DNA of 64,000 nucleotides from Bacteroidota bacterium (GTDB lineage: Bacteria; Bacteroidota; Bacteroidia; Bacteroidales; VadinHA17). The stretch spans positions 1,023 to 65,022 of the forward strand of contig JBAXXU010000007.1 in assembly GCA_037127735.1 (NCBI GenBank). Direction: 5' to 3'. Position 1 is the first letter of the stretch, and each line of letters begins with the position of its first letter. The notes under the pieces are model-generated. The model was given only the letters and a program-made list of their open reading frames with translations. It searched no databases and was not told where the DNA came from. The position numbers and the translations under genes are program-made. Shown here piece by piece: positions 42,961-58,388 of the stretch.

Positions 42961-44145
42961 TCAGATATATTCAAAACTCACTTTCTTAAGCCATTTTTCT
43001 TCGAGCAACCGTGCAATCCGTTTTACCACGGTTCGTCTTATTTCAAGGTCAACGGGCAGGTTGGGATCCTGATGGGCGATGTTTATCCTTGTACCGATAA
43101 TGAAGTGAATCTCATCACTTTCCATAATAAGCCTCACTATCTTATCGGCTGGTCCTTTACCCAGCCTGACACTATTATTATATATTTTCAGTATTTCATT
43201 TACCTTCTGCAGAGTCAGTATCCCCTCAGTTACAAGATCAATTCCTTCAAGAAAACTTTCGGGAGGCAGCTCCGGATCTTCGAAGATAAGTTCATCAACG
43301 ATGGTCCTGTTCAACTCCCTCGCAACTATATCTGCCGTGGTGCCCCCGCAAAGAATTACTTTTCCTTTGTATCCCAAAACTTTTGCCCCCAGGTCTTTGT
43401 CTTTTTCCTTTTCGTAGGGAGGCCCGGTAGAGATAAGTAGTTTGCGCGGTTCGCGAAAATATATTGTTGCACAGCTTATATCGTCCCTCGCTTTATAACT
43501 GTCGTTTTTATGAGCCATTGTAACTATCTTTCCTGCAAGCATCATGGCAGAAATTGATGCTTCACTCGAAACGAGAGAAGCAGCATAGTTAGATAGATTC
43601 TCCCTTTCCCATCCGAATGGATATGCTTCACTGCCCATTCCACTCTGAGATACTCCATCAGAGCAAAAGATTATCCTGTCTTCTTTTTCAGGCATGAACG
43701 TGCAGGTTTTGAGAATTTTTCCGGAATGTTTGCCTTTTTCAAGCACAACTTTTTTCCAAACGGGATCAAATATCTGATTGCCTCTTAAAACAACTGTTGA
43801 GGGGTTGTCATATTCAAGTATGGTGGCCCGGCCACTGCTCTCTATGTCAATTATTGTGAAGGTGGAATAGCTGATTTTCCTTTCGCTGCATACAGGAAGG
43901 GTATTCATTATGATCTCTGCAATACGGTCAACCTCTTTATGTTCGCGGGTGAAATTTATGGCCATCGTTGCAGTGAGGGTAGCAAGAATATTTGCTTTCA
44001 CACCGTGACCCATACCATCAGATAAAACTGCAATAACCCTGTTTTCTTCTTTAATATAACGGTAAAGGAAGACATCACCGGAAATCCTCTCACCGTCATG
44101 ATTCCTCTGCTGGCTGTTTACCTCAATATAAAAGTTCCTGTTCAC
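42961..44145 (-). CDS. SpoIIE/PP2C-family protein phosphatase with a ~190-aa C-terminal extension
   Basis: GDVFLY...LSDGMGHG...FCSDGV metal-binding Asp motifs. Starts 6 nt after the hydS-PAS stop. Confidence 0.8.
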   Translation of the reverse strand: MNRNFYIEVNSQQRNHDGERISGDVFLYRYIKEENRVIAVLSDGMGHGVKANILATLTATMAINFTREHKEVDRIAEIIMNTLPVCSERKISYSTFTIIDIESSGRATILEYDNPSTVVLRGNQIFDPVWKKVVLEKGKHSGKILKTCTFMPEKEDRIIFCSDGVSQSGMGSEAYPFGWERENLSNYAASLVSSEASISAMMLAGKIVTMAHKNDSYKARDDISCATIYFREPRKLLISTGPPYEKEKDKDLGAKVLGYKGKVILCGGTTADIVARELNRTIVDELIFEDPELPPESFLEGIDLVTEGILTLQKVNEILKIYNNSVRLGKGPADKIVRLIMESDEIHFIIGTRINIAHQDPNLPVDLEIRRTVVKRIARLLEEKWLKKVSFEYI

Positions 44146-44151
44146 GTAAGA

Positions 44152-46038
44152 TTATTTCAGTTTGTTATTCTGACTTACCTTTTTTGTTTTGTACGACTCT
44201 ATTATCGAGTTGAGCATCTGTTCCGTTTCAGAAGCGCCTTCCCCAAGCAGAAACCCGATCTTTTGAACCATTTCAAGGTTTTTATCAATTACCTCGCTTA
44301 CCCTGTTTGTCACCTCTTCACCCTGTACCTCAGGCGAGTACAGGTCGCGGATTATTGCTCCGCACATCTTGTTCTTTTTTATTGGAAATATGGAGATATT
44401 CAGCATCTTATCTTCAAAATGGACATCTTTGCTCACAACAGGTTCGTCTTCTTTAATAACAAATGTAAACATGTTATACACATTGAATGGGATGAGCGTC
44501 TTTATATCGGCGCCTGCCAGCCCGGGGATAACATCTGATATTGCTTTGGCATCTTCCCCGATTATATTTATGAAGCTTTGATTTGAATGGAGTATTTTCA
44601 GAAAATTATCAACGATAACAACGCCTGTCGGGAGTTTTTCGAGCATGTTATTCATCATATCAGAAGCGCTTTGTGCTATCTCCTTTTCCCTGCGGGCAAG
44701 CTCTTCTGATTCCTTGAGGGCTTTTTTTGTTTCAGCCAGCTTCCTGTTTGTCTGCCTGAGTGTTTCAATGTACTCCTGTTTGTTACGCAGGTTGAAGGTA
44801 TGGCACATTTCAGGAACTGCAAGCCCTTTTGCAACAGTTGATGCAAAATCGCGGCACGAAAGGTATCCACAAGCGCCACAGTTTAATTCTTCATCAGGAT
44901 TATTTTTACCCACGATTTTAAGTACCTCATTTATTGCCTCTTCAGGAGGTTCCGGGATTCTCTGATCGTCAGGGGAAAAGGTTCTGGAAAAATCGAGTTT
45001 CGACCATTTTTCCATACTTTTTTGCCAGAGTACTTTATCAATTTTTTCAACCCTTTTTTCTGCATACTTCCGTACCAGGGCCCTTCTTCTGAACCGTTCA
45101 TTGTGATGCTCCATGGCCGGACCCAACAGGCATCCGTGACAGAAAAACAAGTTGAAATGGTGTTTTATTGTATCAATGTATTTATCGAAATCATTTATTG
45201 CTTCAAGGATTTCCTCCTTTCCTGAAGCAGTTATAACACTGCTCGAAACCATGTCGCGCTTAATTCCTCCTGCCTGTATTATCCCGGCCGGAAGAGGGTA
45301 GAGGGCGCCCCAGTTGCCATAAGGAGGATCAAAATCCGACAACTTAACGAGCCGTTCCTGGATATTGAACTCATCAAAAAGCTGCCTCAACTCAATAAAT
45401 GTAAGAACTCCGTCAACCAGTTTGCCTGAACTATAAATCAGCGATTCGTCCTTTGCATCGAGGCATGGTCCTATCTGAATCGTTGCAACATCAGCCCCGT
45501 ACAACTCCTTCACTACCATTGCGGTAGCAATCATAGGAGAGACTAATGGGGCAAGGTTTGGTACCAGGTCCGGATAAAATTTCTCCACCATCTTAACAAT
45601 TGAAGGGCAATTGGCAGTTATGTAATACTTGCCTTCTGCTTTTGAGAAAAGCTTTGCATAGGCCGCGGCAATCAGATCAACTCCGAATGAATCTTCATGA
45701 ACATAATCAAATCCCAGCGACCTGATCATTCCCACGAACTTCCTGTAATCAGTTATGTCGTCAAACTCCGAAGCAATACTCGGTTCAATCAGGGCTGCAG
45801 TTTTCCTGCCTGATGACAGTAATTTCTTCACTTCTTCCCTCGAGTCGCGGAACCCGATAGCATGAGGGGTGCATGCAACATAGCATAAACCGCAACCTAT
45901 ACACCTGTCAGGAAGTATGAACGGATGCTCCTTCTGAGGCTTAACCTCTATGGCATTGACAGGGCAGACACGAACGCAGGAATATGAATTTCTGCATTTA
46001 TCGTCATTTATGAACAGAACAGGTTTTATGTCCGTCAT
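44152..46038 (-). CDS. hydS: sensory-type [FeFe]-hydrogenase (HydS-like) fused to a PAS domain
   Basis: N-terminal ferredoxin motifs. H-cluster motifs ANCPS, GPCLDAKDE and FFCHGCLLGP. Extra Cx2Cx4Cx16C (CGACGYLSC...EMC). Coiled linker and a PAS-like C-terminus. Confidence 0.8.
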   Translation of the reverse strand: MTDIKPVLFINDDKCRNSYSCVRVCPVNAIEVKPQKEHPFILPDRCIGCGLCYVACTPHAIGFRDSREEVKKLLSSGRKTAALIEPSIASEFDDITDYRKFVGMIRSLGFDYVHEDSFGVDLIAAAYAKLFSKAEGKYYITANCPSIVKMVEKFYPDLVPNLAPLVSPMIATAMVVKELYGADVATIQIGPCLDAKDESLIYSSGKLVDGVLTFIELRQLFDEFNIQERLVKLSDFDPPYGNWGALYPLPAGIIQAGGIKRDMVSSSVITASGKEEILEAINDFDKYIDTIKHHFNLFFCHGCLLGPAMEHHNERFRRRALVRKYAEKRVEKIDKVLWQKSMEKWSKLDFSRTFSPDDQRIPEPPEEAINEVLKIVGKNNPDEELNCGACGYLSCRDFASTVAKGLAVPEMCHTFNLRNKQEYIETLRQTNRKLAETKKALKESEELARREKEIAQSASDMMNNMLEKLPTGVVIVDNFLKILHSNQSFINIIGEDAKAISDVIPGLAGADIKTLIPFNVYNMFTFVIKEDEPVVSKDVHFEDKMLNISIFPIKKNKMCGAIIRDLYSPEVQGEEVTNRVSEVIDKNLEMVQKIGFLLGEGASETEQMLNSIIESYKTKKVSQNNKLK

Positions 46039-46057
46039 TTTACATTAAACTTACTTA

Positions 46058-46309
46058 TTATAATCTGGCAAATTCTTTTTCGAGGATACCTTCAATTTTT
46101 GAGATGGTAACACCTTCAGTTGTTATCCCGTTAATATTCAGATTCGGGCCATTACTGCAATTGCCCATGCAACGCGCTCCTTTGAAAATGACTTTGTCGT
46201 CGAGATGGTTTTTCCTCAGGTATTCCCGTATGAACATTACTACATCCTTGTTACCTCTTGAAAAACAGGAACTGCCGAGACAAATTTGCATTTCAATTCT
46301 TTGAGCCAT
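46058..46309 (-). CDS. thioredoxin-like [2Fe-2S] ferredoxin
   Basis: 83 aa. CLGSSCF ... CMGNCSNGP four-Cys pattern, as in NuoE-type domains. Confidence 0.7.
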   Translation of the reverse strand: MAQRIEMQICLGSSCFSRGNKDVVMFIREYLRKNHLDDKVIFKGARCMGNCSNGPNLNINGITTEGVTISKIEGILEKEFARL

Positions 46310-46527
46310 TTTTTACTGTTCATAAATAAACAACAACATCAAAAGTAATATTTTTTTTCGAGCCGGCATCAATCACTTTTCATCTAAAAGTAGCATAATT
46401 ATTTAGTATTATCCGACTGCTCCTCATTCTACCCGGTAATGGAATTACTTAGTAAATATTATCATATTTTGTAAATAGCAGATATACAGCATATAAGCTA
46501 TATGTTGAACGTAATATAAATTATTAA

Positions 46528-46572
46528 TTTTATTGTTAATAAAATAACAATGTTTATTTATTAACAATAAAA
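46528..46572. promoter_or_regulatory. perfect 15-bp inverted repeat containing two overlapping Rex-box-like operators
   Basis: TTTTATTGTTAATAA (46528-46542) and TTATTAACAATAAAA (46558-46572). TTGTTAA-TAAA-ATAACAA (46533-46550) matches 13/14 half-site positions of TTGTTAAnnnnTTAACAA. ATGTTTA-TTTA-TTAACAA (46550-46567) matches 12/14. Confidence 0.45.
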
Positions 46573-46577
46573 TCAAT

Positions 46578-46585
46578 TATCTTTG
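46578..46585 (+). promoter_or_regulatory. candidate -7 box (TAnnTTTG) of the hydCBA promoter
   Basis: TATCTTTG lies 28 nt upstream of the hydC ATG. The Rex-like boxes lie where a -33 element would be. Confidence 0.35.
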
Positions 46586-46613
46586 TGTTGAAATATTTTA
46601 TTTTTTTTCAGGG

Positions 46614-47084
46614 ATGGATAAGGATCTTGACATAATTCTCAAAAAGTACAAACAGGGGAAACGGGAGGATCTTATTCCTCTTCTTCAGGAAATACAGGAA
46701 GATCTTGGTCATCTTTCTGAAGATGCAATTATAAAGGTCGGAAGTTTTTTAGGGCTAAGCACAACTAAGATCTATGGCCTTGCTACATTTTACGACAGGT
46801 TCAGGTTCATCCCTCGCGGAAAAATTCAGATAAAGATTTGCCATGGCACTTCATGTTTTCTTAACGGATCGCAGGCTATCATTAATAAAATAAAAGAAGA
46901 GACAGGTGTAATGCCCGGCCAAACTACCAGAGATGGCAATTTCAGCTATGAGATTGTATCATGTATGGGTGGCTGCCATAATGGCCCGTTGATAAATGTT
47001 AACGAAGAATTTCAGATACATATTAAGGCTGAACAACTGCCTGAACTTATTAAAAAACTTAAGTACGTTATTGAAAGCGACTAA
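46614..47084 (+). CDS. hydC: NuoE-like [2Fe-2S] subunit of an NAD(P)-linked [FeFe]-hydrogenase
   Basis: ICHGTSCFLNG ... VSCMGGCHNGP. Confidence 0.85.
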   Translation: MDKDLDIILKKYKQGKREDLIPLLQEIQEDLGHLSEDAIIKVGSFLGLSTTKIYGLATFYDRFRFIPRGKIQIKICHGTSCFLNGSQAIINKIKEETGVMPGQTTRDGNFSYEIVSCMGGCHNGPLINVNEEFQIHIKAEQLPELIKKLKYVIESD

Positions 47085-47102
47085 TTCAATATTGCAACCC
47101 GG

Positions 47103-49037
47103 ATGGAAGATCTGAAGACATTTCTTATTAACAAAGTCCTGTTATCTGAATCCGATGCCTTACCTCCGGAAACCGAAAAGGTATTACAGCAAATCAGGCG
47201 TGAAAAACCCAATGAACCTGTGATCTTTGTCTCATCCGGCACAAGCAGTGTTATTGCCGGATCGGAAAAAACATATTCTGCAATTGATACATATATTATT
47301 GAAAATGAACCATCAGCGCGATTAGTGCGCGTCGGGTGTGCCGGACCGGCTAATTTTGAACCTCTGGTCTGCATTCAGATACCCGGCAAAAACAAACTGT
47401 TCTTCAGAAATATTACAGAGGAGAAGGTTGAACCGCTTCTCAACGGTGTTTTTCATAACGATATTAATGAAGAAGACCTTGCCGGTCAGTCCGGAACGAA
47501 AGGATTTGAATTATGGCCGGGAATTCCTTTTATGGATCAGTTGCCCTTCTTTGCCAACCAGAAAAGGGTGGTACTCGGCAATTGCGGTTGTTACGACCCG
47601 GAAAGTATTGAAGAATACATCGCCCGGGGAGGTTACAGGGCATATATTAAAACAATCACACATTATACTTTTGAAGAGGTATGTGATATCGTGGAAAGGA
47701 GCGGTCTGAGAGGTAGAAGCGGGGGAGGATATCTGACAGGACTAAAATGGAAACATGCTCTTAACACAACTTCAAATGCAAGATATCTTATATGCAACGC
47801 GAAGGAGAGCGACCCCGGAGCGTTCACCGACAGAACCATTCTTGAAAGCGACCCCCATCGTCTTGTTGAAGGTATTGCAATAGCTTCGTATGCCATAGGC
47901 GCTTCAAATGCCATAGTATTTATCAGATCGGGTTCCGATCATGCAAGAAACAGACTTCAGAAAGCAATCAACAAGGCCAGGGATTATGGCCTTTTCGGAC
48001 ATAATATTTTTTCAAGCGGATACAACCTCGATATTGTGATCCGCAAAGAACCCGGCGCCTTTGTATGCGGTGAAGAAACTGCTCTGATAAACTCTCTCGA
48101 AGGAAAAAGAGGAATGCCCAGGCTTAAACCTCCTTATCCCACCACTGCAGGATTATTCGGCAAGCCAACTGTGATTAACAATGTTGAGACTCTGATGAAT
48201 GTCCCGCTTATAATGCAGAACGGACCGGAATGGTTCAGAACGCTTGGAACAGAAAACAGCCCCGGCACTAAAATTTTCGCTGTGGCAGGAAAAGGGCGCA
48301 TGTCGGGCGTGGTGGAGGTTGAAATGGGAACAACCATAAGGACAATACTGGAAGATATTGCCGATGGCATACGTGAGGGAAAAGAGTTTAAAGCCATACA
48401 GCTGGGCGGAGCTTCAGGCTCTTTTATTACCAGCGAAAACCTCGATATTGCAATAGATTATGACGATCTCAAAGAAAAAGGGATAGGAATGGGCGCCGGA
48501 GGATTCGTGATAATTGATGAGAACACCTGTATGGTTGACCTCGTGAGATATTATATGGAATTTATCCGTAATGAGAGTTGTGGCAAATGTATTCCATGTC
48601 GCGAAGGTACAGGCAGGATGCTCGAGATACTTGAGAGCGTGATAAGAAAACCTTTGAATGAGGAGTCGGGAACAACCCTTGAACGGTTTAAAGGGGTAAT
48701 GCAACTCGAAACAATTGCATCGGTGATGAAAGACACCTCCCTTTGCGGCCTTGGCCAGGCAGCTCCAAACCCTTTTATAAGCGCACTAAAGAACTTCAGG
48801 GATGAGTTTGAAGAACATATATTCGACAGGAAATGCCGTGCCAATATCTGCAGGGGATTAAGGTCATTCTCAATTGACGTGGATAAATGTACCGGATGTA
48901 CTGCATGTGCAGGCAAATGTCCGGTGAACGCGATTTATGGAACCCGCCTTCAGCCATTTTTTATTGTTGAGGAGAAATGTATCGGCTGTGGTATCTGTTT
49001 TGATATTTGTAAATTCAGTGCAATAACTGTTAAATAA
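47103..49037 (+). CDS. hydB: NuoF-like flavoprotein subunit (FMN, NAD(P)H, Fe-S) of an [FeFe]-hydrogenase
   Basis: GRSGGGYLTGLKW (FMN site), ESCGKCIPCREG, and C-terminal 2x CxxCxxCxxxCP (CTGCTACAGKCP, CIGCGICFDIC). Confidence 0.9.
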   Translation: MEDLKTFLINKVLLSESDALPPETEKVLQQIRREKPNEPVIFVSSGTSSVIAGSEKTYSAIDTYIIENEPSARLVRVGCAGPANFEPLVCIQIPGKNKLFFRNITEEKVEPLLNGVFHNDINEEDLAGQSGTKGFELWPGIPFMDQLPFFANQKRVVLGNCGCYDPESIEEYIARGGYRAYIKTITHYTFEEVCDIVERSGLRGRSGGGYLTGLKWKHALNTTSNARYLICNAKESDPGAFTDRTILESDPHRLVEGIAIASYAIGASNAIVFIRSGSDHARNRLQKAINKARDYGLFGHNIFSSGYNLDIVIRKEPGAFVCGEETALINSLEGKRGMPRLKPPYPTTAGLFGKPTVINNVETLMNVPLIMQNGPEWFRTLGTENSPGTKIFAVAGKGRMSGVVEVEMGTTIRTILEDIADGIREGKEFKAIQLGGASGSFITSENLDIAIDYDDLKEKGIGMGAGGFVIIDENTCMVDLVRYYMEFIRNESCGKCIPCREGTGRMLEILESVIRKPLNEESGTTLERFKGVMQLETIASVMKDTSLCGLGQAAPNPFISALKNFRDEFEEHIFDRKCRANICRGLRSFSIDVDKCTGCTACAGKCPVNAIYGTRLQPFFIVEEKCIGCGICFDICKFSAITVK

Positions 49038-49042
49038 CCAAT

Positions 49043-50764
49043 ATGGTTTTTACAATACAGGTAAATAATAAGAAGATCAAAGCTGAAAAGGGCGAAACAA
49101 TCCTTTCGGCCCTTAACCGTAACGGGATTATTATTCCTACCCTCTGCAGGATGAAAGAGTTTACTCCCACCGGCGCCTGCAGGATGTGTGTTGTTGAAGT
49201 GGAAGGCCGCGACCGTCTGGTTACAGCCTGCTCGCAGCCTGTTGAAGAATGGATGAAAATAAAAACCCATTCCCCGAGAGTTATAATGGCAAGAAAAACA
49301 ATCGTGGAACTGCTTCTTTCAAACCATCCCGATGATTGTCTTTATTGCGACCGGAACCTCAACTGTGAACTGCAGCGCCTTTCGGAAGAACTTAATATAA
49401 GAGAACGCCGTATACGCGGGAAAAAAATAAAACCGCGCCTCGACCAGTCGAGCCCTGCAATTGTAAGGGAACTCTCGAAATGCATCCTTTGCGGACGATG
49501 TGTAAGAGTCTGCGAAGAGGTAATAACAGCAACCTCACTCGATTTTATTAATAAAGGAAGAGAGACTCACGTCGGGGCAGCTATGGACAGGGATTTCAAC
49601 TTCTCGAGCTGTGTACATTGCGGCCAGTGCGTACTGGTATGTCCAACAGGAGCCCTTCACGAAAAACATAATATAACTGAAGTCCAGGATTACCTCAATA
49701 AACCGGATATTGTAAAAATAATTCAGTACTCTCCACTGGTAACTGTCGGGATAGCTGAAGAACTGGGCATGAGGTATAACAGGGAAGTTGATAAGGTACT
49801 AAATGCCGTTCTTCGTAAAATTGGATTTGATAAGGTGTTTACAACAGGTACGGGAACTGATGTTTGTATATCTGAGATCACCGGTCAGCTATCTGTAAAA
49901 ATTGAAAGTAAAAACGATACTCCATTATATATTTCTGCTTGCCCGGCATGGGTTAAATACGCCGAACAGTTCATGCCTTCGGTTATTCCCCGGCTGTCAA
50001 CCGTTAAATCGCCTCAACAGATTACAGGCGTATTGATTAAAACACTCGTTGCCGGCCAGCTGCGCGTAAAACCGGAAGAGATTTTTTCAGTTTCTGTAAC
50101 TCCCTGTATAGCAATGAAATTTGAAGCCCGCCGCGATGGAATGATGCGGAAGGGGATCAGCGATGTTGATTCTGTTCTGACTGTCAGGGAACTGGCACGG
50201 CTCATAAGGTTATATGGCATTGATGTTACAAATATTGACCATGAGCCGGCCGATGAACCTTTAACAGGGAGAAGCTCCGTTGCAGTACTTGCTGAAGTAT
50301 CTGGGGGATTGGCTGAAGGGGTGATACGATCGTTCCATTTTCAAAAACTTAAGAAAGAGGCTGAAAAACAGCTTTTTAAAAAATTGCGTTCAGGAGGATC
50401 TTTCAGGGAAGCGTCATTTCAGATAGACGAAATTGAGGTAAATGTTGCAGTTGTGGATGGCCTTACCGGTCTCGAAAAGTTGAGAACATCAATTGCCGCC
50501 GGCAAGAAATTTGACCTTATTGAGGTGATGGCTTGCCCGGGGGGGTGTGTGCATGGAGCCGGACTCTCTTTCAGCGCTTCAAAGGATGAGATAAAAAGCA
50601 GATCGAAACTTATATATCATGCCGATGAAACTGAAGCAATAAATCTGCCCTGCAAATCACCTGCCCTGATTAATCTCAATGAAAAATTATTAAAGGAGAA
50701 TAGTGATATTGCAGATAAGAAGATATTCTATACTCATTTTGAAAAGAGAAATGTATTGTTGTGA
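49043..50764 (+). CDS. hydA: [FeFe]-hydrogenase large subunit, M3 architecture, non-canonical H-cluster motifs
   Basis: 2Fe-2S (CRMKEF..GACRMC), HPDDCLYCDRNLNC and two ferredoxin motifs. H-domain motifs are YISACPAW, VTPCIAMKFE and EVMACPGGCVHGAG. Confidence 0.85.
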   Translation: MVFTIQVNNKKIKAEKGETILSALNRNGIIIPTLCRMKEFTPTGACRMCVVEVEGRDRLVTACSQPVEEWMKIKTHSPRVIMARKTIVELLLSNHPDDCLYCDRNLNCELQRLSEELNIRERRIRGKKIKPRLDQSSPAIVRELSKCILCGRCVRVCEEVITATSLDFINKGRETHVGAAMDRDFNFSSCVHCGQCVLVCPTGALHEKHNITEVQDYLNKPDIVKIIQYSPLVTVGIAEELGMRYNREVDKVLNAVLRKIGFDKVFTTGTGTDVCISEITGQLSVKIESKNDTPLYISACPAWVKYAEQFMPSVIPRLSTVKSPQQITGVLIKTLVAGQLRVKPEEIFSVSVTPCIAMKFEARRDGMMRKGISDVDSVLTVRELARLIRLYGIDVTNIDHEPADEPLTGRSSVAVLAEVSGGLAEGVIRSFHFQKLKKEAEKQLFKKLRSGGSFREASFQIDEIEVNVAVVDGLTGLEKLRTSIAAGKKFDLIEVMACPGGCVHGAGLSFSASKDEIKSRSKLIYHADETEAINLPCKSPALINLNEKLLKENSDIADKKIFYTHFEKRNVLL

Positions 50765-50825: not shown

Positions 50826-52787
50826 ATGTTGGTTTACACAATAAAAGAACTTTGCCGCACATGCTACACCTGCGTCAGGGAATGTCCTGCCAAAGCAATC
50901 CGTATTGTTGGTGGTCAGGCTGAGGTGATTGATGAAAGGTGCATTGCCTGCGGTAACTGTACAAAAGTATGCAGCCAGGGCGCCAAGGTCTTTCTGAACA
51001 CAACCGACAGGGTGGCGAAACTTCTCGAAAACGATTCGAAAGTTGCTGCTATTATTGCTCCGAGCTTTCCGGCAGAATTCTCTGATATACCCGATCACCA
51101 CGTTCTTACCGGAATGATAAAGTCACTTGGATTTGAATATGTTGCAGAGGTTGCTTTTGGCGCTGACCTTGTTGCTGACAAATATAAAAAACTTGTTTCG
51201 GAAGATAAAGATTTTTATATCTCATCTGATTGTCCTTCAATAGTTAATTACATAAAATTCTTTCACCCGGCTCTTGTCGCAAATCTGGCTCCCATAGTTT
51301 CTCCCATGGTGGCAATGAGCAGGGTTATTCGTGAAAAATACGGCAAGGATACAAGTATTGTTTTCATAGGCCCGTGTGTCGCGAAGAAAGCTGAAAGCGC
51401 TGAAATAGACGAGGCAATAACATTCACGGAATTGAGGGATATGTTTGCTGAAAGAGGTATCGCCCCGGAGAACAGTATACCGGTTGATTTTGACCAGCCT
51501 GTTGGCGGAAGAGGCGCCATATTCCCTGTTGCACGCGGATTGCTTCAGACCGCTAAAATCAGCGATAACGCTATTACCGGAAATATAATCGCGGCTGAAG
51601 GCAGGATTGATTTTCAGGGAGCACTGAAGGAATTTGAAGCAGGACTGATAAAAAACCAGCACATGGAACTGCTATGTTGCGAAGGCTGCATCATGGGGCC
51701 GGGATTATCGAAAAGCGGGAAGCAGTATAACAGACGCTCGCTCGTAAGCTCTTATGCCAACAGTAAGATGCAGAATATCGATTCTGACAGCTGGCAAAGA
51801 TCATTCGATGAATATGCTGAACTCGACTTATCGTTTCGTCATAAACCTGAAGATCACAGGATTGAATTGCTCGACGAAAATGATGTATCTGATGAACTGA
51901 GTAAGATGGGCAAGAAGACGAAGAAGGACCAGCTCGACTGTGGCGCCTGCGGTTACGAAAGTTGCGTGGAGCATGCAATAGCAATAAAGAAGGGCCTTGC
52001 CGAAGTGGAGATGTGTCTGCCATATACTATTGAAAAACTGCATAAATCAGTAAATGATCTTGCATTGTCAAACGAGAAACTATCCTCGATGAAGCAGGCT
52101 CTCAAACAATCGGAAAAGCTTGCTCACATGGGCCAGCTTTCAGCCGGTATTGCCCATGAATTGAATAATCCCCTTGGAGTTGTAATAATGTACAGCAACA
52201 TTCTTCTGGAAGAATCATCCGAGGGCGATCCTGTCAGGGAAGATCTTAAACTTATAGTCGAACAGGCAGGCAGATGCAAGAAAATTGTTGCCGGCTTGCT
52301 CAATTTTGCAAGGAAAAACCAGGTTAACCATCAACCGGTAAGTATAAAGGAACTTGTTAATCATAGTCTTGAAAGTCTTATAATTCCTGAAGAGATAAAA
52401 ATCAGTATATCTGATCTGACAACCAATCCGGAGGCAATGCTAGATGCGGAACAGATGATGCAGGTTCTTACCAACCTCGTGAAGAACGCTATTGACGCTA
52501 TGCCGGATGGGGGAGCCATAGATATTAAGCTTGAAGATACTCTCGGTGATGTTATTATTACGATAAGTGACACAGGGACAGGTATTAAGGAAGAAGACAG
52601 GGCTAAGATTTTCGAACCATTCTTTACCACTAAAAGCATTGGAAAAGGAACCGGACTGGGGCTCGCTACCGCGTATGGCGTAGTTAAAATGCATAAGGGA
52701 CAGATTATTGCTGAGTCAAACAACGATTTGGCCAAAGGGCCGACAGGGACAAGTTTTAAGATTATGTTACCAAGAAGAAAGGAATAG
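50826..52787 (+). CDS. hydS: sensory-type [FeFe]-hydrogenase domain fused directly to a histidine kinase
   Basis: CRTCYTCVRECP and CIACGNCTKVC. H-cluster motifs SSDCPS, GPCVAKKAE and LLCCEGCIMGPG. CGACGYESC...EMC. Then H-box AHELNNPL, N-box NLVKNAIDA, DTGTGI and GTGLGL. Confidence 0.8.
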   Translation: MLVYTIKELCRTCYTCVRECPAKAIRIVGGQAEVIDERCIACGNCTKVCSQGAKVFLNTTDRVAKLLENDSKVAAIIAPSFPAEFSDIPDHHVLTGMIKSLGFEYVAEVAFGADLVADKYKKLVSEDKDFYISSDCPSIVNYIKFFHPALVANLAPIVSPMVAMSRVIREKYGKDTSIVFIGPCVAKKAESAEIDEAITFTELRDMFAERGIAPENSIPVDFDQPVGGRGAIFPVARGLLQTAKISDNAITGNIIAAEGRIDFQGALKEFEAGLIKNQHMELLCCEGCIMGPGLSKSGKQYNRRSLVSSYANSKMQNIDSDSWQRSFDEYAELDLSFRHKPEDHRIELLDENDVSDELSKMGKKTKKDQLDCGACGYESCVEHAIAIKKGLAEVEMCLPYTIEKLHKSVNDLALSNEKLSSMKQALKQSEKLAHMGQLSAGIAHELNNPLGVVIMYSNILLEESSEGDPVREDLKLIVEQAGRCKKIVAGLLNFARKNQVNHQPVSIKELVNHSLESLIIPEEIKISISDLTTNPEAMLDAEQMMQVLTNLVKNAIDAMPDGGAIDIKLEDTLGDVIITISDTGTGIKEEDRAKIFEPFFTTKSIGKGTGLGLATAYGVVKMHKGQIIAESNNDLAKGPTGTSFKIMLPRRKE

Positions 52788-52826
52788 AGTGGGAGAAGGG
52801 GAGAGAGAGGGAATGGGAGAGTTGAA

Positions 52827-52868
52827 GACAAAAGATAAAAGTAAAAAGACAAAAGTAAGCAGTGAGCA
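52827..52868 (+). repeat. heptanucleotide tract downstream of the hydS-kinase gene
   Basis: GACAAAA GATAAAA GTAAAAA GACAAAA GTAAGCA GTGAGCA in one register, preceded by a purine-rich GGGAGA-type stretch. Confidence 0.75.
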
Positions 52869-52950
52869 TAACCCAGCACCAATGTTAATAAATTAACACC
52901 AGATAATATATATCATATTTACTGTTTGATTTAACTTCTTTTATTTATAA

Positions 52951-53058
52951 ACTTTGTGAGCCTTTGTGTAACCCTTTGTGTAACCCTTTGTGCGACTTAG
53001 TGTTTAATATTTTTTTACCACGAAGGTACACAAAGTACATCACAAAGTAACACAAAGA
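52951..53058. repeat. CTTTGTG direct repeats mirrored by CACAAAG repeats (long imperfect palindrome)
   Basis: CTTTGTG at 52952, 52962, 52974 and 52986. CACAAAG at 53029, 53041 and 53051. AT/T-rich centre. Confidence 0.7.
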
Positions 53059-53124
53059 AAAAGAGCGCTTTAAGTATATTTGTGAATAATTCAGGTTAAA
53101 GAAATTTTAGAAATTTGTGGAAAG

Positions 53125-53520
53125 ATGAAGAAAAGTGATATTACCATACTTGTTGCTGATGATGATCCGGATTATCTTTTTCAGACAGTATTTAATCTCG
53201 GGAAGGCAGGTTACAAGACTGTGGCAGTAGAGAGCCAGGCAGAGGCAGAATCGGTAATTGCCCGTTTCAAACCTCACCTCGCAATATTCGACCTGATGAT
53301 GGAGAGCGACGACAGTGGATTTATATTATGTTACAAGATGAAAAGAAAATATCCTGATGTACCTGTAATTCTGGCAACTGCAGTATCGCACGAAACAGGA
53401 TTGTCTTTTAGTATTGATTCAGAACAGGAAAAGTCGTGGATCAGAGCCGACAGATATCTTGAAAAAGGTATCAGGCCCGAGCAGCTTGACCAGGAGGTTA
53501 TGAAACTGTTAAAACTTTAA
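53125..53520 (+). CDS. stand-alone response-regulator receiver domain
   Basis: ILVADDDPD ... AIFDLMM ... 131 aa, no output domain. Confidence 0.85.
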   Translation: MKKSDITILVADDDPDYLFQTVFNLGKAGYKTVAVESQAEAESVIARFKPHLAIFDLMMESDDSGFILCYKMKRKYPDVPVILATAVSHETGLSFSIDSEQEKSWIRADRYLEKGIRPEQLDQEVMKLLKL

Positions 53521-53521
53521 A

Positions 53522-54658
53522 ATGGCTGTTTTAAAAGTACTTGTTATTGATGATGAACCAGGGATACGTTCAGGTGTTTCACGGATACTGAATAACTTTC
53601 ATGTAACATATCCTTTTATGGATGAGGATTATACATTTGAAGTTACTGAAGCCGGAACAGGCGAAGACGGTATCGCGATCATTGAAAGCAGTATGCCGGA
53701 TATCCTTTTACTCGATAATAAGCTACCCGGAATACAGGGAGTTGATGTTCTGGAATATATCAGGAAGAGAAATTATGATATTGTTGTCGCGATGATCACA
53801 TCTTATGCCTCACTCGACGTGGCAATAAGGGCCACCCGCGATGGAGCCATCGATTTTATCCCGAAACCATTTACCCCCCAGGAACTTAAATCGAGCATTG
53901 AAAATATCACTAAACAGCAGTATCTTAAAAGGATAACTCATAAAATGAAGCAGGAGGGAAAGAAGATACGGTACCAGTTTCTTTCTGTCCTTTCACATGA
54001 ATTGAAAGCTCCGCTGAATGTACTGGAAGGGTATCTCAGGATGATGCAGGAAAAACAGGCGGGAGACAGGATTGAGGATTATACAACACCAATAGAAAGA
54101 TCGCTTCAACGCATACAAGGTATGAGGAGCCTTATTATGGATCTTCTTGATTTTACAAAAATACGGCTAGAAAGAAAAGAGGAAAAGATACAGGAGGTCA
54201 ACCTTGCAGAAGTAGCCTCCGAGGCAATAGTTACAGTCCAGCCCTATGCTATCCAAATGGATGTCAGTATAAACCTGGATGTTAGATCCGATGCAATTAT
54301 AATGGCTGATCCTGATGATATGGAAATCGTTTTTAATAATCTCATCTCGAATGCAGTCAAATATAATAAAATAGGGGGGAAAGCAGAAATTACTATCAAT
54401 AGTTCCGATAGCGAAGCAATTCTTATCTTTTCCGATACAGGGATAGGCATAACAAAAAATGACACGGAAAATTTGTTTGCCGAGTTTGTAAGGATAAAGA
54501 ACGAAAAAACAAGAAATATATCAGGAAGCGGACTTGGCCTGTCAATTGTTAAGAAAGTTGTTGAACTTTACCATGGAACTATAAATGTTGATAGCACACC
54601 CGATGTAGGAACAGTATTTACAATCAGATTACCAAAAAAAGCAATAACCACCCCCTGA
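53522..54658 (+). CDS. hybrid receiver-histidine kinase
   Basis: VLVIDDEPG...LLLDNKLPG receiver. H-box LSHELKAPL. NLISNAVKY, DTGIGI and GSGLGLSI. Confidence 0.85.
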   Translation: MAVLKVLVIDDEPGIRSGVSRILNNFHVTYPFMDEDYTFEVTEAGTGEDGIAIIESSMPDILLLDNKLPGIQGVDVLEYIRKRNYDIVVAMITSYASLDVAIRATRDGAIDFIPKPFTPQELKSSIENITKQQYLKRITHKMKQEGKKIRYQFLSVLSHELKAPLNVLEGYLRMMQEKQAGDRIEDYTTPIERSLQRIQGMRSLIMDLLDFTKIRLERKEEKIQEVNLAEVASEAIVTVQPYAIQMDVSINLDVRSDAIIMADPDDMEIVFNNLISNAVKYNKIGGKAEITINSSDSEAILIFSDTGIGITKNDTENLFAEFVRIKNEKTRNISGSGLGLSIVKKVVELYHGTINVDSTPDVGTVFTIRLPKKAITTP

Positions 54659-54664
54659 AAAATC

Positions 54665-55291
54665 ATGACTAAATTACCCGGAAAAACTGTAGAAAGGCTA
54701 AGCGAGTACAGAAGGACGCTTCTCGAATGTCTTAACGAAAAAAGAAACTTCATATTTTCTCACGATCTGGCTGCCCGTCTTCATATTACAGCAGTGCAGG
54801 TCAGACGCGACCTCATGCTGATCGGCTATTCCAGCGTTCTCAGAAAGGGATACGATGTGAGGGAGCTGATTGATATTATCGGGAAGATCATTGATTCTGA
54901 AGAGAGCATGAATGTTGCCATAATCGGGATTGGAAACCTGGGAAGAGCCCTGGCAGGATATTTCAAAGGGAAACGGTCAAAACTTAACCTTGTGGCATCA
55001 TTTGATAATGATCCGCAGAAAGTCAATAAGGTTATTTCGGGGGTGAAATGTTATCCTTACATTGATATCGAAAGGATGATCAAAGAGCTTGATATCCGGA
55101 TAGCGATACTTACTGTTTCACCGGATTTCGCGAGGGAGATTGCTGAGGAGACTGTCCGCTTCGGGATAAAGGGTATTCTCAATTTTACGACTATCCCTTT
55201 AAACGTCCCTTCAGGTGTCTATCTCGAAGAATATGATATGATCACCTCTATTGAAAAAGTTGCATATTTTGTTAAAGAGAATAAAATTTAG
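54665..55291 (+). CDS. rex: redox-sensing transcriptional repressor Rex
   Basis: TVERLSEYRRTL...VQVRRDLMLIGY winged-helix part, then GIGNLGRALAGY Rossmann part. Confidence 0.85.
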   Translation: MTKLPGKTVERLSEYRRTLLECLNEKRNFIFSHDLAARLHITAVQVRRDLMLIGYSSVLRKGYDVRELIDIIGKIIDSEESMNVAIIGIGNLGRALAGYFKGKRSKLNLVASFDNDPQKVNKVISGVKCYPYIDIERMIKELDIRIAILTVSPDFAREIAEETVRFGIKGILNFTTIPLNVPSGVYLEEYDMITSIEKVAYFVKENKI

Positions 55292-55306
55292 CGTCCTTGT
55301 TGCAAC

Positions 55307-56227
55307 ATGAAGATATTCAGAAGCTTTGAAGATGCAAAGGGTATAAGAAATCCTGTCGTGACAACCGGATCGTTCGATGGGGTTCATATCGGGCATAAAA
55401 CCATACTTAACCGTCTTAAGATGCTTGCAGAAAAGTGCGACGGTGAATCGGTTCTCATCACCTTCGATCCGCATCCCCGGAAAGTACTTTACCCTGAAAC
55501 AGCCGGAAAAGATCTGAAACTGATTAATTCACAGGAAGAAAAACTGGAACTCCTCGAAAAGGCCGGCCTTAATAACCTTATCATCATAGAATTCACGAGT
55601 GAGTTCTCAAAAGTGACAAGCGAACAGTTTGTCAGAGACTTTCTTCATGGAATGTTGCATGCAAAAGTTGTTGTTGTTGGGTTTAACCATCATTTCGGAT
55701 TCAATAAAGAAGGCGATTATAAACAACTCTGGAAGTGGCAGGGAATATATGATTTTGAAGCCGAAGAGATACCGGAACAAGAGGTTCAGCACGAAACAGT
55801 AAGTTCGACAAAAATACGCCAGGCAATAAGCGAGGGTTATATTCAACGTGCAAATGCCTACCTCGATCATTATTATATTGTTATGGGAAAGCCTGAAAAA
55901 TATTCCTCCGATGAGGCAGTTGGCCTGCCCACAATGTTAAAAATTCCTTTGACAGAAGAGTGTAAGCTTCTTCCTTCACAGGGGATTTATGCAGTCTCTG
56001 TTGAAAGCGGACTTCTTTATTCAAAAGGAATGGCAATAATTCACAATAAACCCGAAGATAAACCTGAAGTTCTTTTAAATATTTTTGACAACCTGAACAT
56101 TCCTGCCGACCAGAATATTACCCTTTTTTTTCATAAGAAAATACATGGCGCTGTTAATCTGTCAGATAGTAAATACGCGGGTAAAATTAACTATGCAAAA
56201 GAGGAGATAACAGAACTTATTTACTGA
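55307..56227 (+). CDS. ribF: bifunctional riboflavin kinase / FAD synthetase
   Basis: TGSFDGVHIGH. C-terminal kinase part has VSSTKIR. Confidence 0.85.
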   Translation: MKIFRSFEDAKGIRNPVVTTGSFDGVHIGHKTILNRLKMLAEKCDGESVLITFDPHPRKVLYPETAGKDLKLINSQEEKLELLEKAGLNNLIIIEFTSEFSKVTSEQFVRDFLHGMLHAKVVVVGFNHHFGFNKEGDYKQLWKWQGIYDFEAEEIPEQEVQHETVSSTKIRQAISEGYIQRANAYLDHYYIVMGKPEKYSSDEAVGLPTMLKIPLTEECKLLPSQGIYAVSVESGLLYSKGMAIIHNKPEDKPEVLLNIFDNLNIPADQNITLFFHKKIHGAVNLSDSKYAGKINYAKEEITELIY

Positions 56228-56302
56228 CAAGAAGCAAATATGAAGAAGGGGGAATAGGGAGAAATGGAGCAACTTTTTTAAACTAATTTAATTTTATAAT
56301 TC

Positions 56303-57727
56303 ATGAGGTTTACTCCTGAAAAACTGACCATCCCCGATCAACGGATGAAGCCATTCATTGATCCTGAAGAGATTTGGGGACTTATCAACAATACAAAGCC
56401 CGACAAACAGAGGGTGAGGGATGTCATTGCAAAATCGCTCGATAAACAAAGGCTCACGATGGAGGAGACTGCAGTTCTCGTGAATGTTGTCGGTACCGAC
56501 CTGGCTGATGAGATCAAACAGGGGGCCCGCGAACTGAAACAGAGAGTTTATGGTAACCGGATAGTGCTTTTTGCCCCGCTCTATGTAGGAAACAGGTGTA
56601 TAAATAACTGCAAATATTGCGGTTTCAGGACTTCAAATGCCGATGCTGTAAGGAAAACATTGAGCGACAATGAGATCATAAGCGAGGTGGAGGCACTGGA
56701 GGATAACGGACAAAAAAGGCTGATCCTTGTATATGGCGAACACCCCGATTACTCACCTGAATATATAGCCCATACAGTTAAGTTGGTGTATGGCGTCAAA
56801 AAGGGCCATGGCGAAATCAGAAGAGTAAATATCAATGCCGCACCACTCGACATTGAAGGTTTCAGAATTGTTGGCGAGTCAGGGATTGGCACCTACCAGG
56901 TCTTTCAGGAAACATACCACCCGGAGGCATATAAATGGTACCACCTGGGTGGGAAAAAGAAAGACTTTGAATGGCGACTGACATCGCTCGACAGAGCACA
57001 GGAAGCCGGAATTGATGATGTCGGAATCGGAGCCCTGTTCGGACTGTACGACTGGAGGTTTGAGGTACTGGGACTTGTTCGTCATACAAATCATCTTGAA
57101 GCATGTTATAATGTAGGCCCACATACTATATCTTTTCCGAGGATAAAAGATGCTGTAAGTCTGAACCTCGATAAGAAATTCGAGACAAGCGATGATGATT
57201 TTAAAAAACTTGTTGCTATCCTTCGTCTTGCTGTTCCATACACCGGATTGATCCTCACTGCACGTGAGACTCCCGATGTACGCCGGGAAGTATTGCAATT
57301 TGGTGTATCACAGATAGATGGTGGAACAAAACTTGAGCTTGGTTCTTATTCAGATTCAAAAAATGAAGAACAGAACCTTAACCGCGAGCAGTTTAAAATT
57401 AGCGATCCCCGTTCGCTGGCTGAAGTAATTGATGAGCTGCTCACGGACAATTATTTGCCATCATTTTGCACATCTTGCTACAGGATGGGACGCACCGGCG
57501 AACACTTCATGGAATTTTCAGTACCGGGTTTCATTAAAAGATTCTGCACACCCAATGCAATACTTACCCTTGCAGAATATATCTGCGACTATGGCCAGGG
57601 AGAGACTGTTAATAAGGGCTGGAAGGTAATTGTGAAGAACCTGGAAAAGCTCGAATCTGAAGTTGCCGTAAGTACCAGGGAAAAGATAGAAAGGATTAAG
57701 GCGGGGGAGAGAGACCTTTATTTTTGA
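56303..57727 (+). CDS. hydG: [FeFe]-hydrogenase H-cluster radical-SAM maturase HydG
   Basis: CINNCKYCGF (Cx3Cx2C) and the C-terminal auxiliary-cluster motif CTSCYRMGRTGEHFMEF...FCTPNA. Confidence 0.9.
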   Translation: MRFTPEKLTIPDQRMKPFIDPEEIWGLINNTKPDKQRVRDVIAKSLDKQRLTMEETAVLVNVVGTDLADEIKQGARELKQRVYGNRIVLFAPLYVGNRCINNCKYCGFRTSNADAVRKTLSDNEIISEVEALEDNGQKRLILVYGEHPDYSPEYIAHTVKLVYGVKKGHGEIRRVNINAAPLDIEGFRIVGESGIGTYQVFQETYHPEAYKWYHLGGKKKDFEWRLTSLDRAQEAGIDDVGIGALFGLYDWRFEVLGLVRHTNHLEACYNVGPHTISFPRIKDAVSLNLDKKFETSDDDFKKLVAILRLAVPYTGLILTARETPDVRREVLQFGVSQIDGGTKLELGSYSDSKNEEQNLNREQFKISDPRSLAEVIDELLTDNYLPSFCTSCYRMGRTGEHFMEFSVPGFIKRFCTPNAILTLAEYICDYGQGETVNKGWKVIVKNLEKLESEVAVSTREKIERIKAGERDLYF

Positions 57728-57825
57728 GGCGACAGGCGTAAGGCGTCAGGCGACAGTTTCAAATCCGAAATCCGAAATCCGAAATCCCCAGCCTGTAGCC
57801 CGTAGCCAGAGGCCTGTAGCCTTAT
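57728..57825 (+). repeat. 14-unit phase-locked heptanucleotide tract directly after the hydG stop
   Basis: GGCGACA GGCGTAA GGCGTCA GGCGACA GTTTCAA ATCCGAA x3 ATCCCCA GCCTGTA GCCCGTA GCCAGAG GCCTGTA, all in one 7-nt register. Confidence 0.9.
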
Positions 57826-57863
57826 TTTATGTTATAAAACAAATTATTCAATCTATAAGCATC

Positions 57864-58388
57864 ATGATAAAAGTACTTGGTATTAAAATTATCGACAGGA
57901 TAAAAGAAGCCGGTCTAACACAGGAGATATTGTCGCGGCATGCTACCGTAATAACTACCCGACTGGGTTTTCATGAAGTGACTGATTCAGTCTGCAGCCG
58001 TGAGGCATATATCATTCTTCATCTTAATGGCGATCCGGCTGATACAGATAGACTTTCATCAGCGCTGGAAGGGATTGGGGGTATTGAGATCCGCGGGATG
58101 TCCTTTCCTTCTGAAAAGGAAACCCTGAATTTAAAGACAGTTAATGGCAATGTGGAAATACTTGGTATTCTTGTTGAAAGAAACCACGATGTAATTGTTT
58201 TAGTTCAGAAAATCCTAACGGCTTATGGCTGTAATATCCGTACCCGTCTCGGTGTTAATGAGCTCTTCTTTGGCGAACCGGCAGGGCTGATCATTCTCGA
58301 ATTAAAGGGAGATGAAAAGCAGCGTCTTCTTCTTGAAAAGGAACTGAAGGGACTAAAACATGTGCATGTCAGGACGATGGTGTTTTAG
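57864..58388 (+). CDS. tandem-duplicated TM1266-type (iron-only hydrogenase system regulator, ACT/NikR-C-like) protein
   Basis: Two ~85-aa halves share a pattern: VLGIKIIDR...VITTRLGFHE...YIILHLNG versus ILGILVERN...NIRTRLGVNE...LIILELKG. Adjacent to hydG. Confidence 0.6.
   Translation: MIKVLGIKIIDRIKEAGLTQEILSRHATVITTRLGFHEVTDSVCSREAYIILHLNGDPADTDRLSSALEGIGGIEIRGMSFPSEKETLNLKTVNGNVEILGILVERNHDVIVLVQKILTAYGCNIRTRLGVNELFFGEPAGLIILELKGDEKQRLLLEKELKGLKHVHVRTMVF

Follow-up and report, generated by a model that had tools for sequence, protein, structure and literature searches.

The 64,000-nucleotide stretch of DNA analysed here (the window; positions 1,023 to 65,022 of contig JBAXXU010000007.1, assembly GCA_037127735.1, from a Bacteroidota bacterium of the order Bacteroidales) holds, between positions 42961 and 58388, thirteen genes built around three [FeFe]-hydrogenase-like proteins. 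On balance, this region is best regarded as a hydrogenase module that is conserved among uncultured Bacteroidales and regulates itself. Its core is a cassette of eight genes (hydC-hydB-hydA-hydS-HK-rec-recHK-rex-ribF-like), encoding the three subunits of a HydABC-type hydrogenase, a sensory hydrogenase fused to a histidine kinase (HydS-HK), two receiver proteins, the redox-sensing repressor Rex and a RibF-like protein. This core is found in at least 150 species-level loci from Bacteroidota metagenome-assembled genomes (MAGs), down to approximately 40% HydA identity. The cassette lies behind a Bacteroidetes-type promoter overlapped by tandem Rex operator-like sites, and in most relatives it is accompanied by a divergent hfsABC-like operon, encoding a 2Fe-2S protein, a second sensory hydrogenase with a PAS domain (HydS-PAS) and a PP2C phosphatase, as well as by hydG and a TM1266-like gene.

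The genes were identified by Pfam and NCBIfam profile matches against curated cut-offs, and motifs were read from the translations. Together with the list of open reading frames (ORFs), these matches bear out the coordinates, strands and order that an earlier, sequence-only reading of this DNA had claimed for all thirteen genes. The Bacteroidota origin presumed in that reading is likewise correct. The features of the region are the following:

42961-44145, minus strand: PP2C/SpoIIE-family Ser/Thr phosphatase, 394 aa (Pfam SpoIIE at residues 34-226, E 3.8e-12); last gene of the divergent arm.
44152-46038, minus strand: HydS-PAS, 628 aa (2x[4Fe-4S], Fe_hyd_lg_C, PF04060, coiled coil and PAS).
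46058-46309, minus strand: thioredoxin-like [2Fe-2S] ferredoxin, 83 aa, with four Cys (Pfam 2Fe-2S_thioredx, E 1.8e-10); it opens the divergent arm, at the position of hfsA.
46533-46567, no strand: two overlapping Rex operator-like palindromes, TTGTTAATAAAATAACAA and ATGTTTATTTATTAACAA, covering the putative -33 region of the hydC promoter.
46578-46585, plus strand: TATCTTTG, which fits TAnnTTTG and lies 10 bp downstream of the second Rex box.
46614-47084, plus strand: hydC, NuoE-like 2Fe-2S subunit, 156 aa (Pfam, E 3.4e-43).
47103-49037, plus strand: hydB, NuoF-like flavoprotein, 644 aa (Pfam), with C-terminal 2x[4Fe-4S].
49043-50764, plus strand: hydA, M3-type [FeFe]-hydrogenase subunit, 573 aa (Pfam Fer2_4, NADH-G_4Fe-4S_3, Fer4 and Fe_hyd_lg_C).
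50826-52787, plus strand: HydS-HK, 653 aa (Fer4, Fe_hyd_lg_C and PF04060 fused to HisKA and HATPase).
52882-52899, no strand: third Rex-like box, ATGTTAATAAATTAACAC, in the hydS-HK/rec spacer; its core TGTTAA-N4-TTAACA is a perfect palindrome.
52931-53095, no strand: TTAA-flanked, MITE-like insertion of 165 bp, delimited by alignment to close relatives.
53125-53520, plus strand: stand-alone receiver (rec), 131 aa, without an output domain (Pfam Response_reg).
53522-54658, plus strand: REC-HisKA-HATPase hybrid (recHK), 378 aa, its receiver being N-terminal (Pfam).
54665-55291, plus strand: rex, redox-sensing repressor, 208 aa (NCBIfam NF003995, 191.9 bits against a cut-off of 126).
55307-56227, plus strand: ribF-like FAD synthetase gene of "type II" character (Pfam FAD_syn).
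56303-57727, plus strand: hydG, radical-SAM H-cluster maturase (TIGR03955, 479.4 bits against a cut-off of 312.15).
57864-58388, plus strand: tandem TM1266/CPF_0552-family small ACT-like protein, 174 aa, with two repeats (NF052672, 130.1 bits against a cut-off of 85).

The genes of the minus-strand arm are separated by only 19 and 6 bp. The conservation of the whole arrangement was followed in two samples, which share some contigs. The first was obtained by a HydA scan of species-representative genomes and comprises 80 loci with HydA identities of 77-88%; its counts include only loci long enough to assess each gene. These loci are labelled as Bacteroidales or Bacteroidota MAGs, except for one Chloroflexota label, and come from fen, lake sediment, soil and digesters. 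The second was obtained by a scan with an alignment of HydS-HK proteins, which returned at least 499 relatives, 80 of them kept; nearly all are labelled as Bacteroidota or Bacteroidales MAGs, and one carries a Thiohalospira label. In the first sample, the genes of the cassette are present in 76/76 (hydC), 77/78 (hydB), 72/76 (hydS-HK), 70/71 (rec), 68/69 (recHK), 68/68 (rex) and 63/65 (ribF) of the loci, those of the divergent arm in 63/70 (2Fe-2S protein), 63/70 (hydS-PAS) and 62/68 (pp2c), and the two downstream genes in 41/62 (hydG) and 42/62 (TM1266), with the full 13-gene pattern in 28 loci. Beside hydS-HK, the second sample holds hydA in 70/70 loci, hydB in 66/68, hydC in 65/65, rec in 76/76, recHK in 73/73, rex in 61/70 and ribF in 56/67, and the PP2C arm in 28 of the 33 loci where it could be assessed.

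Six distant loci (L081-L086), where HydA is 39-47% identical to that of the window, hold hydC, hydB, hydA, HydS-HK, REC, REC-HK, rex and ribF in unchanged order, often as overlapping genes, and one of them (L086) additionally carries the PP2C arm, hydG and TM1266. Another locus (L087) possesses the PP2C arm, hydCBA, rex and TM1266, and its kinase arm is absent. The sequence-only reading had named a chance juxtaposition, conserved in no relative, as the outcome that would speak against its proposal. Since the gene order is kept in relatives, that outcome fails decisively: the neighbourhood comparison finds the same order in at least 150 species-level loci.

Rex holds a winged helix-turn-helix domain and a Rossmann domain with the GxGxxG motif (Pfam Put_DNA-bind_N and CoA_binding). 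Palindromes of the type TTGTTAA-N4-TTAACAA, with up to two mismatches, number six in the window, where 0.93 would be expected, and three of them lie inside the locus. The box stands at a fixed distance from hydC in 74 of the 77 close loci, and the sites at the hydC promoter, together with a second site before rec, make up nearly all of the 164 matches in the 1.51 Mb of the 80 loci. Alignment of 74 hydC upstream regions reveals a single conserved block, consisting of the box pair followed by TAnnTTTG, which we take to be the recognised Bacteroidetes -7 promoter element; the second box overlies the predicted -33 region of this promoter. Tandem boxes followed by TATATTTG are also found in the distant loci L081 and L085, and at up to two mismatches Rex boxes are present in 41/64 loci of the second sample. 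The box before rec, located at -78 from this gene, is found in approximately 30 of 73 relatives at up to three mismatches. One close relative (L027) carries at the position of the hydC box the exact general Rex consensus TTGTGAA-N4-TTCACAA, TTGTGAAnnnnTTCACAA, as it is given in the literature (PMC5317091).

Control of the operon by Rex, as proposed in the sequence-only reading, is thus supported by tandem operator-like sites conserved at the hydC promoter and by the location of rex inside the operon, from which we infer repression relieved by NADH. Caldithrix abyssi likewise holds rex in its hydABC operon, whose promoter bears an inverted-repeat operator (PMC5317091). Compared to the Rex operons of Caldithrix, Clostridia and Thermotogae, however, the operator of the window is a TTGTTAA-N4-TTAACAA variant arranged as a tandem overlapping pair, and unlike in other Rex-controlled hydrogenase operons, rex is placed downstream, after the phosphorelay genes, and is followed by the ribF-like gene. 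Two further Rex-box-like palindromes of the window, at 19412-19429 in an Omp85-family gene (one mismatch) and at 21781-21798 in a ComEA-like HHH gene (two mismatches), are probably chance matches in AT-rich sequence.

The hydrogenase encoded by the cassette resembles the bifurcating HydABC enzymes of T. kivui (8a6t), A. woodii (7q4v) and T. maritima (7p5h), which share its three subunits and their domain order. Over its full length, HydA aligns with its counterparts in 8a6t (E 1.8e-126) and 7q4v, and it holds the M3 arrangement of a 2Fe-2S cluster, a His-ligated 4Fe-4S cluster and 2x[4Fe-4S], HydC being NuoE-like as in those enzymes. This architecture, with hydC and hydB immediately upstream of hydA, is that of group A3. 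All FeS ligands, the four H-cluster cysteines, P324/Q325 and M497 are kept (H-domain residues are given in CpI numbering, which the HydA of the window shares by coincidence). Unlike the bifurcating enzymes, however, HydA lacks Glu279, Glu282, Cys299, Met353 and Lys358, its substitutions being E279I, E282Q, R286K, C299A, M353T and K358M, and it falls below the curated cut-offs of the group A6 model NF040763 (575.7 against 765 bits) and of TIGR02512 (349.7 against 405.95 bits). These changes are shared by its relatives: among 81 HydA sequences, Ala299 is found in 73, Met358 in 79, Thr or Ser353 in all 81 and Glu279 in none. Compared to the canonical motifs TSC(C/S)P, MPCxxKK and ExMxC, the first two are altered (ISACPAW and TPCIAMKFE) and the third is canonical (EVMACPGGC).

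The sequence-only reading had rightly observed that all three H-domain paralogues lack TSCCP (ITANCPS in HydS-PAS, ISACPAW in HydA and ISSDCPS in HydS-HK), and that no canonical catalytic hydrogenase is visible in the locus, where the motifs of HydA are altered and the other two H-domain proteins are of the sensory type. Enzymes of the TSCSP type, such as A. woodii HydA1, are active, so the absence of TSCCP alone is not diagnostic. What that reading had missed is that the deviations of HydA reach five further functional positions, and that they represent a derived state, the same cassette being canonical elsewhere.

The positions concerned are well characterized in other enzymes. C299, M353 and M497 are altered in sensory hydrogenases, most commonly to Ala at 299 and to Gly, Ser or Thr at 353 (PMC10055695). 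In prototypical enzymes, replacement of C299 abolishes or severely impairs activity unless the new residue is Asp, and mutation of M353 lowers it less severely; TmHydS, with its Ala299, surpasses CpI C299A in activity (PMC10055695). K358, together with P324 and Q325, contacts the distal CN ligand (PMC10147833), and group D enzymes without the canonical proton pathway are slow and have an alternative one (PMC10407848). Like TamHydS of group D, HydA of the window has lost the canonical proton pathway and maintains an otherwise intact H-cluster site, which would predict low activity (PMC10407848); TamHydS, however, is a PAS-linked M2e monomer, whereas HydA is an M3 subunit of a NuoE/NuoF-type complex without a signalling domain. 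The loss of the canonical proton pathway, Met353 and Lys358 leads to the expectation of a slow or strongly biased enzyme rather than a fast bifurcating one, and HydA of the window would, with slightly better than even chances, bind an H-cluster and turn over slowly or with strong bias, in the manner of groups C and D. In Bacteroides, the "group A3" HydA of B. thetaiotaomicron is reported to show low activity and minimal transcription (PMC12578642); every named relative found in the present analysis comes from a MAG.

A decaying pseudogene is ruled out as an explanation of these substitutions, with no stops in 80 orthologues at 77-88% identity and the variant residues themselves conserved, a pattern indicating that HydA is under purifying selection. 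Clustering at 50% identity reduces the window HydA clade to one representative, whose next relative is 46% identical, and a rough neighbour-joining tree places the HydA of the window among approximately 27 representatives, all non-canonical; this tree is biased because its sample consists of the best matches of the query. A wholly non-canonical HydA radiation, as the tree would have it, was dropped, as the second sample includes canonical HydA in the same cassette. There (n = 70), residue 299 is Ala in 27 sequences, Cys in 21, Asp in 7, Ser in 4, His in 4 and another residue in 7, and eight loci are canonical at all eight positions (EECCMKKM, against IQACTMKM in the window clade). Since this cassette encodes a canonical HydA in other lineages, the state in the window is derived. 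Judging from these residues, the cassette most likely began with a canonical HydABC, and several lineages, that of the window most thoroughly, would have dismantled the proton pathway and second-sphere residues. The representative search also returned a protein of 4122 residues (P0002), which HydA matches in seven stretches (897 bits, 30% identity) and which appears to be a giant multi-H-domain hydrogenase-like protein.

HydB exhibits its own departures from the bifurcating enzymes. Its NuoF core and its C-terminal 2x[4Fe-4S] are retained, and it is best matched in the PDB by 7t2r_B, aligning also to 7q4v_B. In contrast to bifurcating HydB, which holds N-terminal 2Fe-2S ligands and the flavin-site motif NADE, the ligands are lost here (SSGTSS, with C79 alone left), a loss conserved among the 76 orthologues of the clade, and the motif reads NAKE, with Lys or Arg at residue 234 in 76/76. 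The HydB proteins of distant cassettes have NADE, NAVE or NAEE. The ribF-like gene, fixed in its place after rex, had been proposed in the sequence-only reading to supply FMN for HydB, and this part of the proposal is weak and, in the form given, not supported. Its product falls below every RibF equivalog cut-off (e.g., TIGR00083, 119 against 184), with 21.2 bits to Flavokinase. By the motif definitions of PMC2972280, the FMN adenylyltransferase motifs are invariant among orthologues (GSFDGVHIGH, containing HxGH, and SSTKIR), GxY is also present, and the riboflavin-kinase motif PTAN is absent, its site being variable among orthologues. A protein of the FMN adenylyltransferase type makes FAD from FMN, and thus consumes FMN rather than supplying it. 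HxGH and SSTxIR without PTAN, with a C-terminal module that is not conserved, are the marks of FADS type II, which the Bacteroidales species Alistipes putredinis possesses alongside a separate kinase (PMC2972280); unlike in that species, the gene is here a fixed member of a hydrogenase/regulator cassette (63/65 and 56/67 loci in the two samples). A NAKE-type HydB beside a dedicated gene of the FMN adenylyltransferase type raises the idea of an altered flavin requirement.

Both HydS proteins show the architecture of group C, with an M2-type N-terminus, an H-domain with the four Cys ligands and a C-terminal Cx2Cx4Cx16C cluster. Like TmHydS, R. albus HydS and HfsB from T. saccharolyticum, they combine an N-terminal 2x[4Fe-4S] with changes at 299, 353 and 497 and a four-Cys cluster at the C-terminus. 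Contrary to known group C HydS, the relay position (299) of HydS-HK is an invariant Asp, found in 69/69 orthologues of the first sample and 77/77 of the second (the two sets overlap in part), and HydS-PAS has Asn299 (59/59 orthologues) and lacks Lys358, with Ala at this position and Ala or Asn in its orthologues. HydS-HK keeps K358, and Gly353 is invariant among the orthologues of both proteins. Neither Asp nor Asn is among the common states of residue 299 in sensory enzymes (PMC10055695). A PDB sequence search returned no solved HydS structure, its matches being limited to kinase modules and HydA fragments.

The outputs of the two sensors differ, as the sequence-only reading had recognized. 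HydS-HK is fused to its histidine kinase (C1-like), a ZraS/NtrB-like transmitter (PDB match 9jfj ZraS, E 1.8e-32) with the H-box HELNNPL; the H-box of REC-HK is SHELKAPL, and the receiver pockets are DDD...D56...T84...K113 in rec and DD...D65...K115 in REC-HK. HydS-PAS lies 6 bp from the PP2C gene (C3-like). Its PAS domain remains below the Pfam threshold (16.9 against 21.8 bits), its orthologues at 55-60% identity carry PAS_8/PAS_9, and an AlphaFold model, built from 35 sequences, has a core with pLDDT of 85-93 and is matched best in the PDB by PAS domains throughout (NifL, Aer2, PYP, FixL and CitA PASc, the last at a target TM-score of 0.78). Orthologues and predicted model together confirm the assignment as PAS. 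The PP2C protein is among the best conserved of the locus (77-93% identity in related loci), and 120 database matches listed, all of 390-405 residues, are 88-100% identical. Its C-terminal ~165 residues (approximately 230-394) have no Pfam or NCBIfam match and may be an unrecognised partner-binding or sensing domain; an AlphaFold model of this protein, from an alignment of only 88-94% identical sequences, reached a mean pLDDT of 37.6 and was not used.

The order of the divergent arm (small protein, HydS, phosphatase), including a PAS domain with an adjacent Ser phosphatase, is that of hfsA-B-C. Unlike hfsABCD, the locus holds two sensors of different output type and no ferredoxin hydrogenase of the hfsD type, and its host belongs to Bacteroidota, whereas the hosts of hfs/HydS systems are Firmicutes or Thermotogae.

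In the proposed mode of action, Rex would occupy the hydC promoter at low NADH/NAD+, and in some relatives also an internal promoter before rec, which would place Rex under its own control. A rise in NADH would release Rex, and HydABC and the sensors would be produced. HydABC is expected to transfer electrons between NADH, possibly also ferredoxin, and H+/H2. HydS-HK would sense H2 at its H-cluster, whose relay Asp is the sole substitution known to preserve proton transfer, and would pass the signal through the kinase domain to the two receiver proteins. HydS-PAS would act through its PAS domain on PP2C, leading to the dephosphorylation of some phosphoprotein, as has been proposed for HfsB/HfsC and for R. 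albus HydS. Combined, these routes would tune the synthesis or the activity of the hydrogenase to the partial pressure of H2.

Several points weigh against this self-regulating module. Neither sensor route has a DNA-binding or other recognisable output domain in the locus, which leaves unproven the convergence of both H2 routes on the operon, as it had been put forward in the sequence-only reading. The Rex boxes match the TTGTTAA-type variant, a putative lineage-specific Rex motif. Scans for sigma-70 promoters and intrinsic terminators stayed at shuffle expectation, being uninformative for a Bacteroidetes genome. As to HydA, the K358M substitution could block the insertion of [2Fe] altogether, which would favour the absence of catalysis, and an alternative proton path like that of group D might make the enzyme more active than expected.

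A more far-reaching view is that the HydABC of the window clade, once a metabolic bifurcating hydrogenase, has turned into a slow device of sensor-like character that couples H2 and NAD(H), a conversion that we consider conceivable and hold to be doubtful. If it took place, the locus would comprise three H-cluster proteins and no fast hydrogenase, and the lineages would form a natural series from EECCMKKM to IQACTMKM within one conserved operon context.

It has also to be considered that HydABC is an ordinary, fully active bifurcating/confurcating enzyme, in which an alternative proton route compensates for the altered residues, so that the locus would be a regulated group A3 operon. The M3 architecture with HydB and HydC as partners fits such an enzyme, as do the bifurcating T. 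kivui and A. woodii enzymes being the best PDB relatives and the C-terminal 2x[4Fe-4S] kept in HydB, and precedents exist in the alternative proton pathways of group D and in TmHydS, which with Ala299 outperforms CpI C299A. However, five characterised positions have changed together, the CN-contacting Lys included, and mutations of C299 other than to Asp abolish or severely impair prototypical enzymes, those of M353 having a lesser effect; moreover, the N-terminal cluster of HydB is lost, the score against the group A6 model is 575.7 instead of 765 bits, and PGAP names relatives just "2Fe-2S cluster-binding protein". An enzyme of this kind is unlikely.

Improbable to a like degree is that all three H-cluster proteins are sensors, HydABC having ceased in this clade to be a metabolic hydrogenase and serving regulation or poising instead. 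It would link the H2 signal with the NAD(H)/ferredoxin pool, for example by giving the HydS clusters an electron sink or source, or by acting as a safety valve of very slow turnover. This would agree with the sensory-type Ala299 and Thr353 of HydA and its lack of Glu279, Glu282 and Lys358, with the missing cluster and changed flavin motif of HydB, and with the constant position of HydA beside HydS-HK (70/70). It would also agree with the faster evolution of HydA and HydC, which between distant loci are 40-47% and 30-44% identical, against 53-64% for the regulators (HydS-HK 53-59%, recHK 55-57% and rex 55-64%). Nevertheless, HydA is fully canonical in other lineages that hold this cassette, and a sensory role thus does not follow from the association with HydS-HK as such. 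Purifying selection maintains the whole electron-transfer chain along with M497 and every Cys, and HydA, HydB and HydC have no fused signalling domain. Finally, a chance juxtaposition of independent units, with two-component genes, rex and ribF serving unrelated targets, could draw on the absent DNA-binding output, on the general housekeeping character of rex and ribF and on the variable hydG and TM1266 (41/62 for hydG), but is scarcely credible and already contradicted by the conservation data, namely by the order preserved in at least 150 species-level loci down to approximately 40% HydA identity, the overlapping or abutting genes of the distant loci and the exact placing of the Rex operators at the hydC promoter.

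Parts of the self-regulating module have been described before, such as Rex-linked hydABC operons in Caldithrix and HydS beside hydrogenase genes with phosphatase or kinase partners. The literature searched yielded neither the Bacteroidales-wide eight-gene cassette, nor the pairing of two sensors with different output types, nor an invariant Asp relay in a kinase-fused sensor, nor a HydABC with a sensory-like catalytic site where orthologous cassettes are canonical. As fermenters, the host Bacteroidales are common in peat, lake sediment, soil and digesters. Database relatives of HydA are named "iron-only hydrogenase group A", HndD or, by PGAP, "2Fe-2S cluster-binding protein"; with annotation as group A or HndD, studies of MAGs would count a bifurcating H2 producer, a count that the changes in the active site make doubtful. 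The passage from canonical to altered HydA within one cassette offers a natural experiment on how the activity of [FeFe]-hydrogenases is tuned by the proton pathway and by second-sphere residues. To our knowledge, the putative H2 sensing of group C still lacks a defined signalling output, and a kinase-fused HydS with two adjacent cognate receivers constitutes a directly testable phosphotransfer system; its invariant Asp relay is unusual for this group. NADH sensing by Rex, combined at a single promoter region with two routes of H2 sensing, would provide a compact model of fermenters adjusting their H2 release to H2 partial pressure in syntrophic settings.

Among the maturation genes, hydG encodes a complete maturase, scoring above the TIGR03955 cut-off and bearing the radical-SAM motif CNNCKYC and a C-terminal CX2CX22C. 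The TM1266-like protein falls within the CPF_0552 subfamily by NF052672 and below the cut-off of TIGR03959 (31.2 against 60.8 bits), its halves matching PF21699 weakly. Relatives without the downstream hydG-TM1266 pair carry instead an inverted cluster of hydE, a tryptophanase/tyrosine-phenol-lyase-like gene and hydG (L008, 16912-21702), so that two alternative forms of linkage exist between maturation genes and the locus. The HydG of L008 is only 42% identical to that of the window, yet reaches 487 bits against TIGR03955. The tyrosine-lyase homologue adjoining the tyrosine-cleaving HydG in L008 is a curious neighbour. No hydE, hydF or further hydrogenase was found in the ORFs of the window that were scanned (12-23400, 39056-40039 and the flanking ORFs), those at approximately 23.4-37.3 kb being left unscanned and corresponding, by size and order alone, to tuf, ribosomal protein genes and rpoB/rpoC.

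The spacer between hydS-HK and rec is indeed 337 bp long, as described in the sequence-only reading, which had treated it as a gap within the gene order; it does not mark a conserved operon boundary, its length ranging from -4 to 342 bp in relatives and owing its extent in the window to the 165-bp insertion. A regulatory RNA or a fixed operon boundary is ruled out by this variation and by the insertion itself. Missing in close relatives, the insertion (52931-53095) is an inverted array of CTTTGTG/CACAAAG units that looks MITE-like; the window holds no second copy, and a search for the repeat gave no match in related loci, with a mis-spaced pattern, a result of little weight. It separates the third Rex-like box, and a probable -33 element, from rec and supplies its own -7-like TATATTTG at 53075-53082, and it may have rewired the expression of rec, recHK and rex in this genome.

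Directly 3' of the island, two toxin-antitoxin-like pairs are found at 58657-59351 and 59938-60608. The first comprises a HEPN protein (58657-59055) and a Pol-beta-type nucleotidyltransferase (59034-59351), and the second a HigB-like toxin (59938-60255) followed by an unassigned ORF of 118 residues that could be the antitoxin. No ORF of at least 90 residues was called at 61.9-63.3 kb. Elsewhere in the window, a ThuA domain in a sugar-utilisation cluster is divided over overlapping minus-strand ORFs, with its N-terminal half in 6723-7208 and its C-terminal half, together with DUF6807, in 5507-6781, which suggests a frameshift or a pseudogene.

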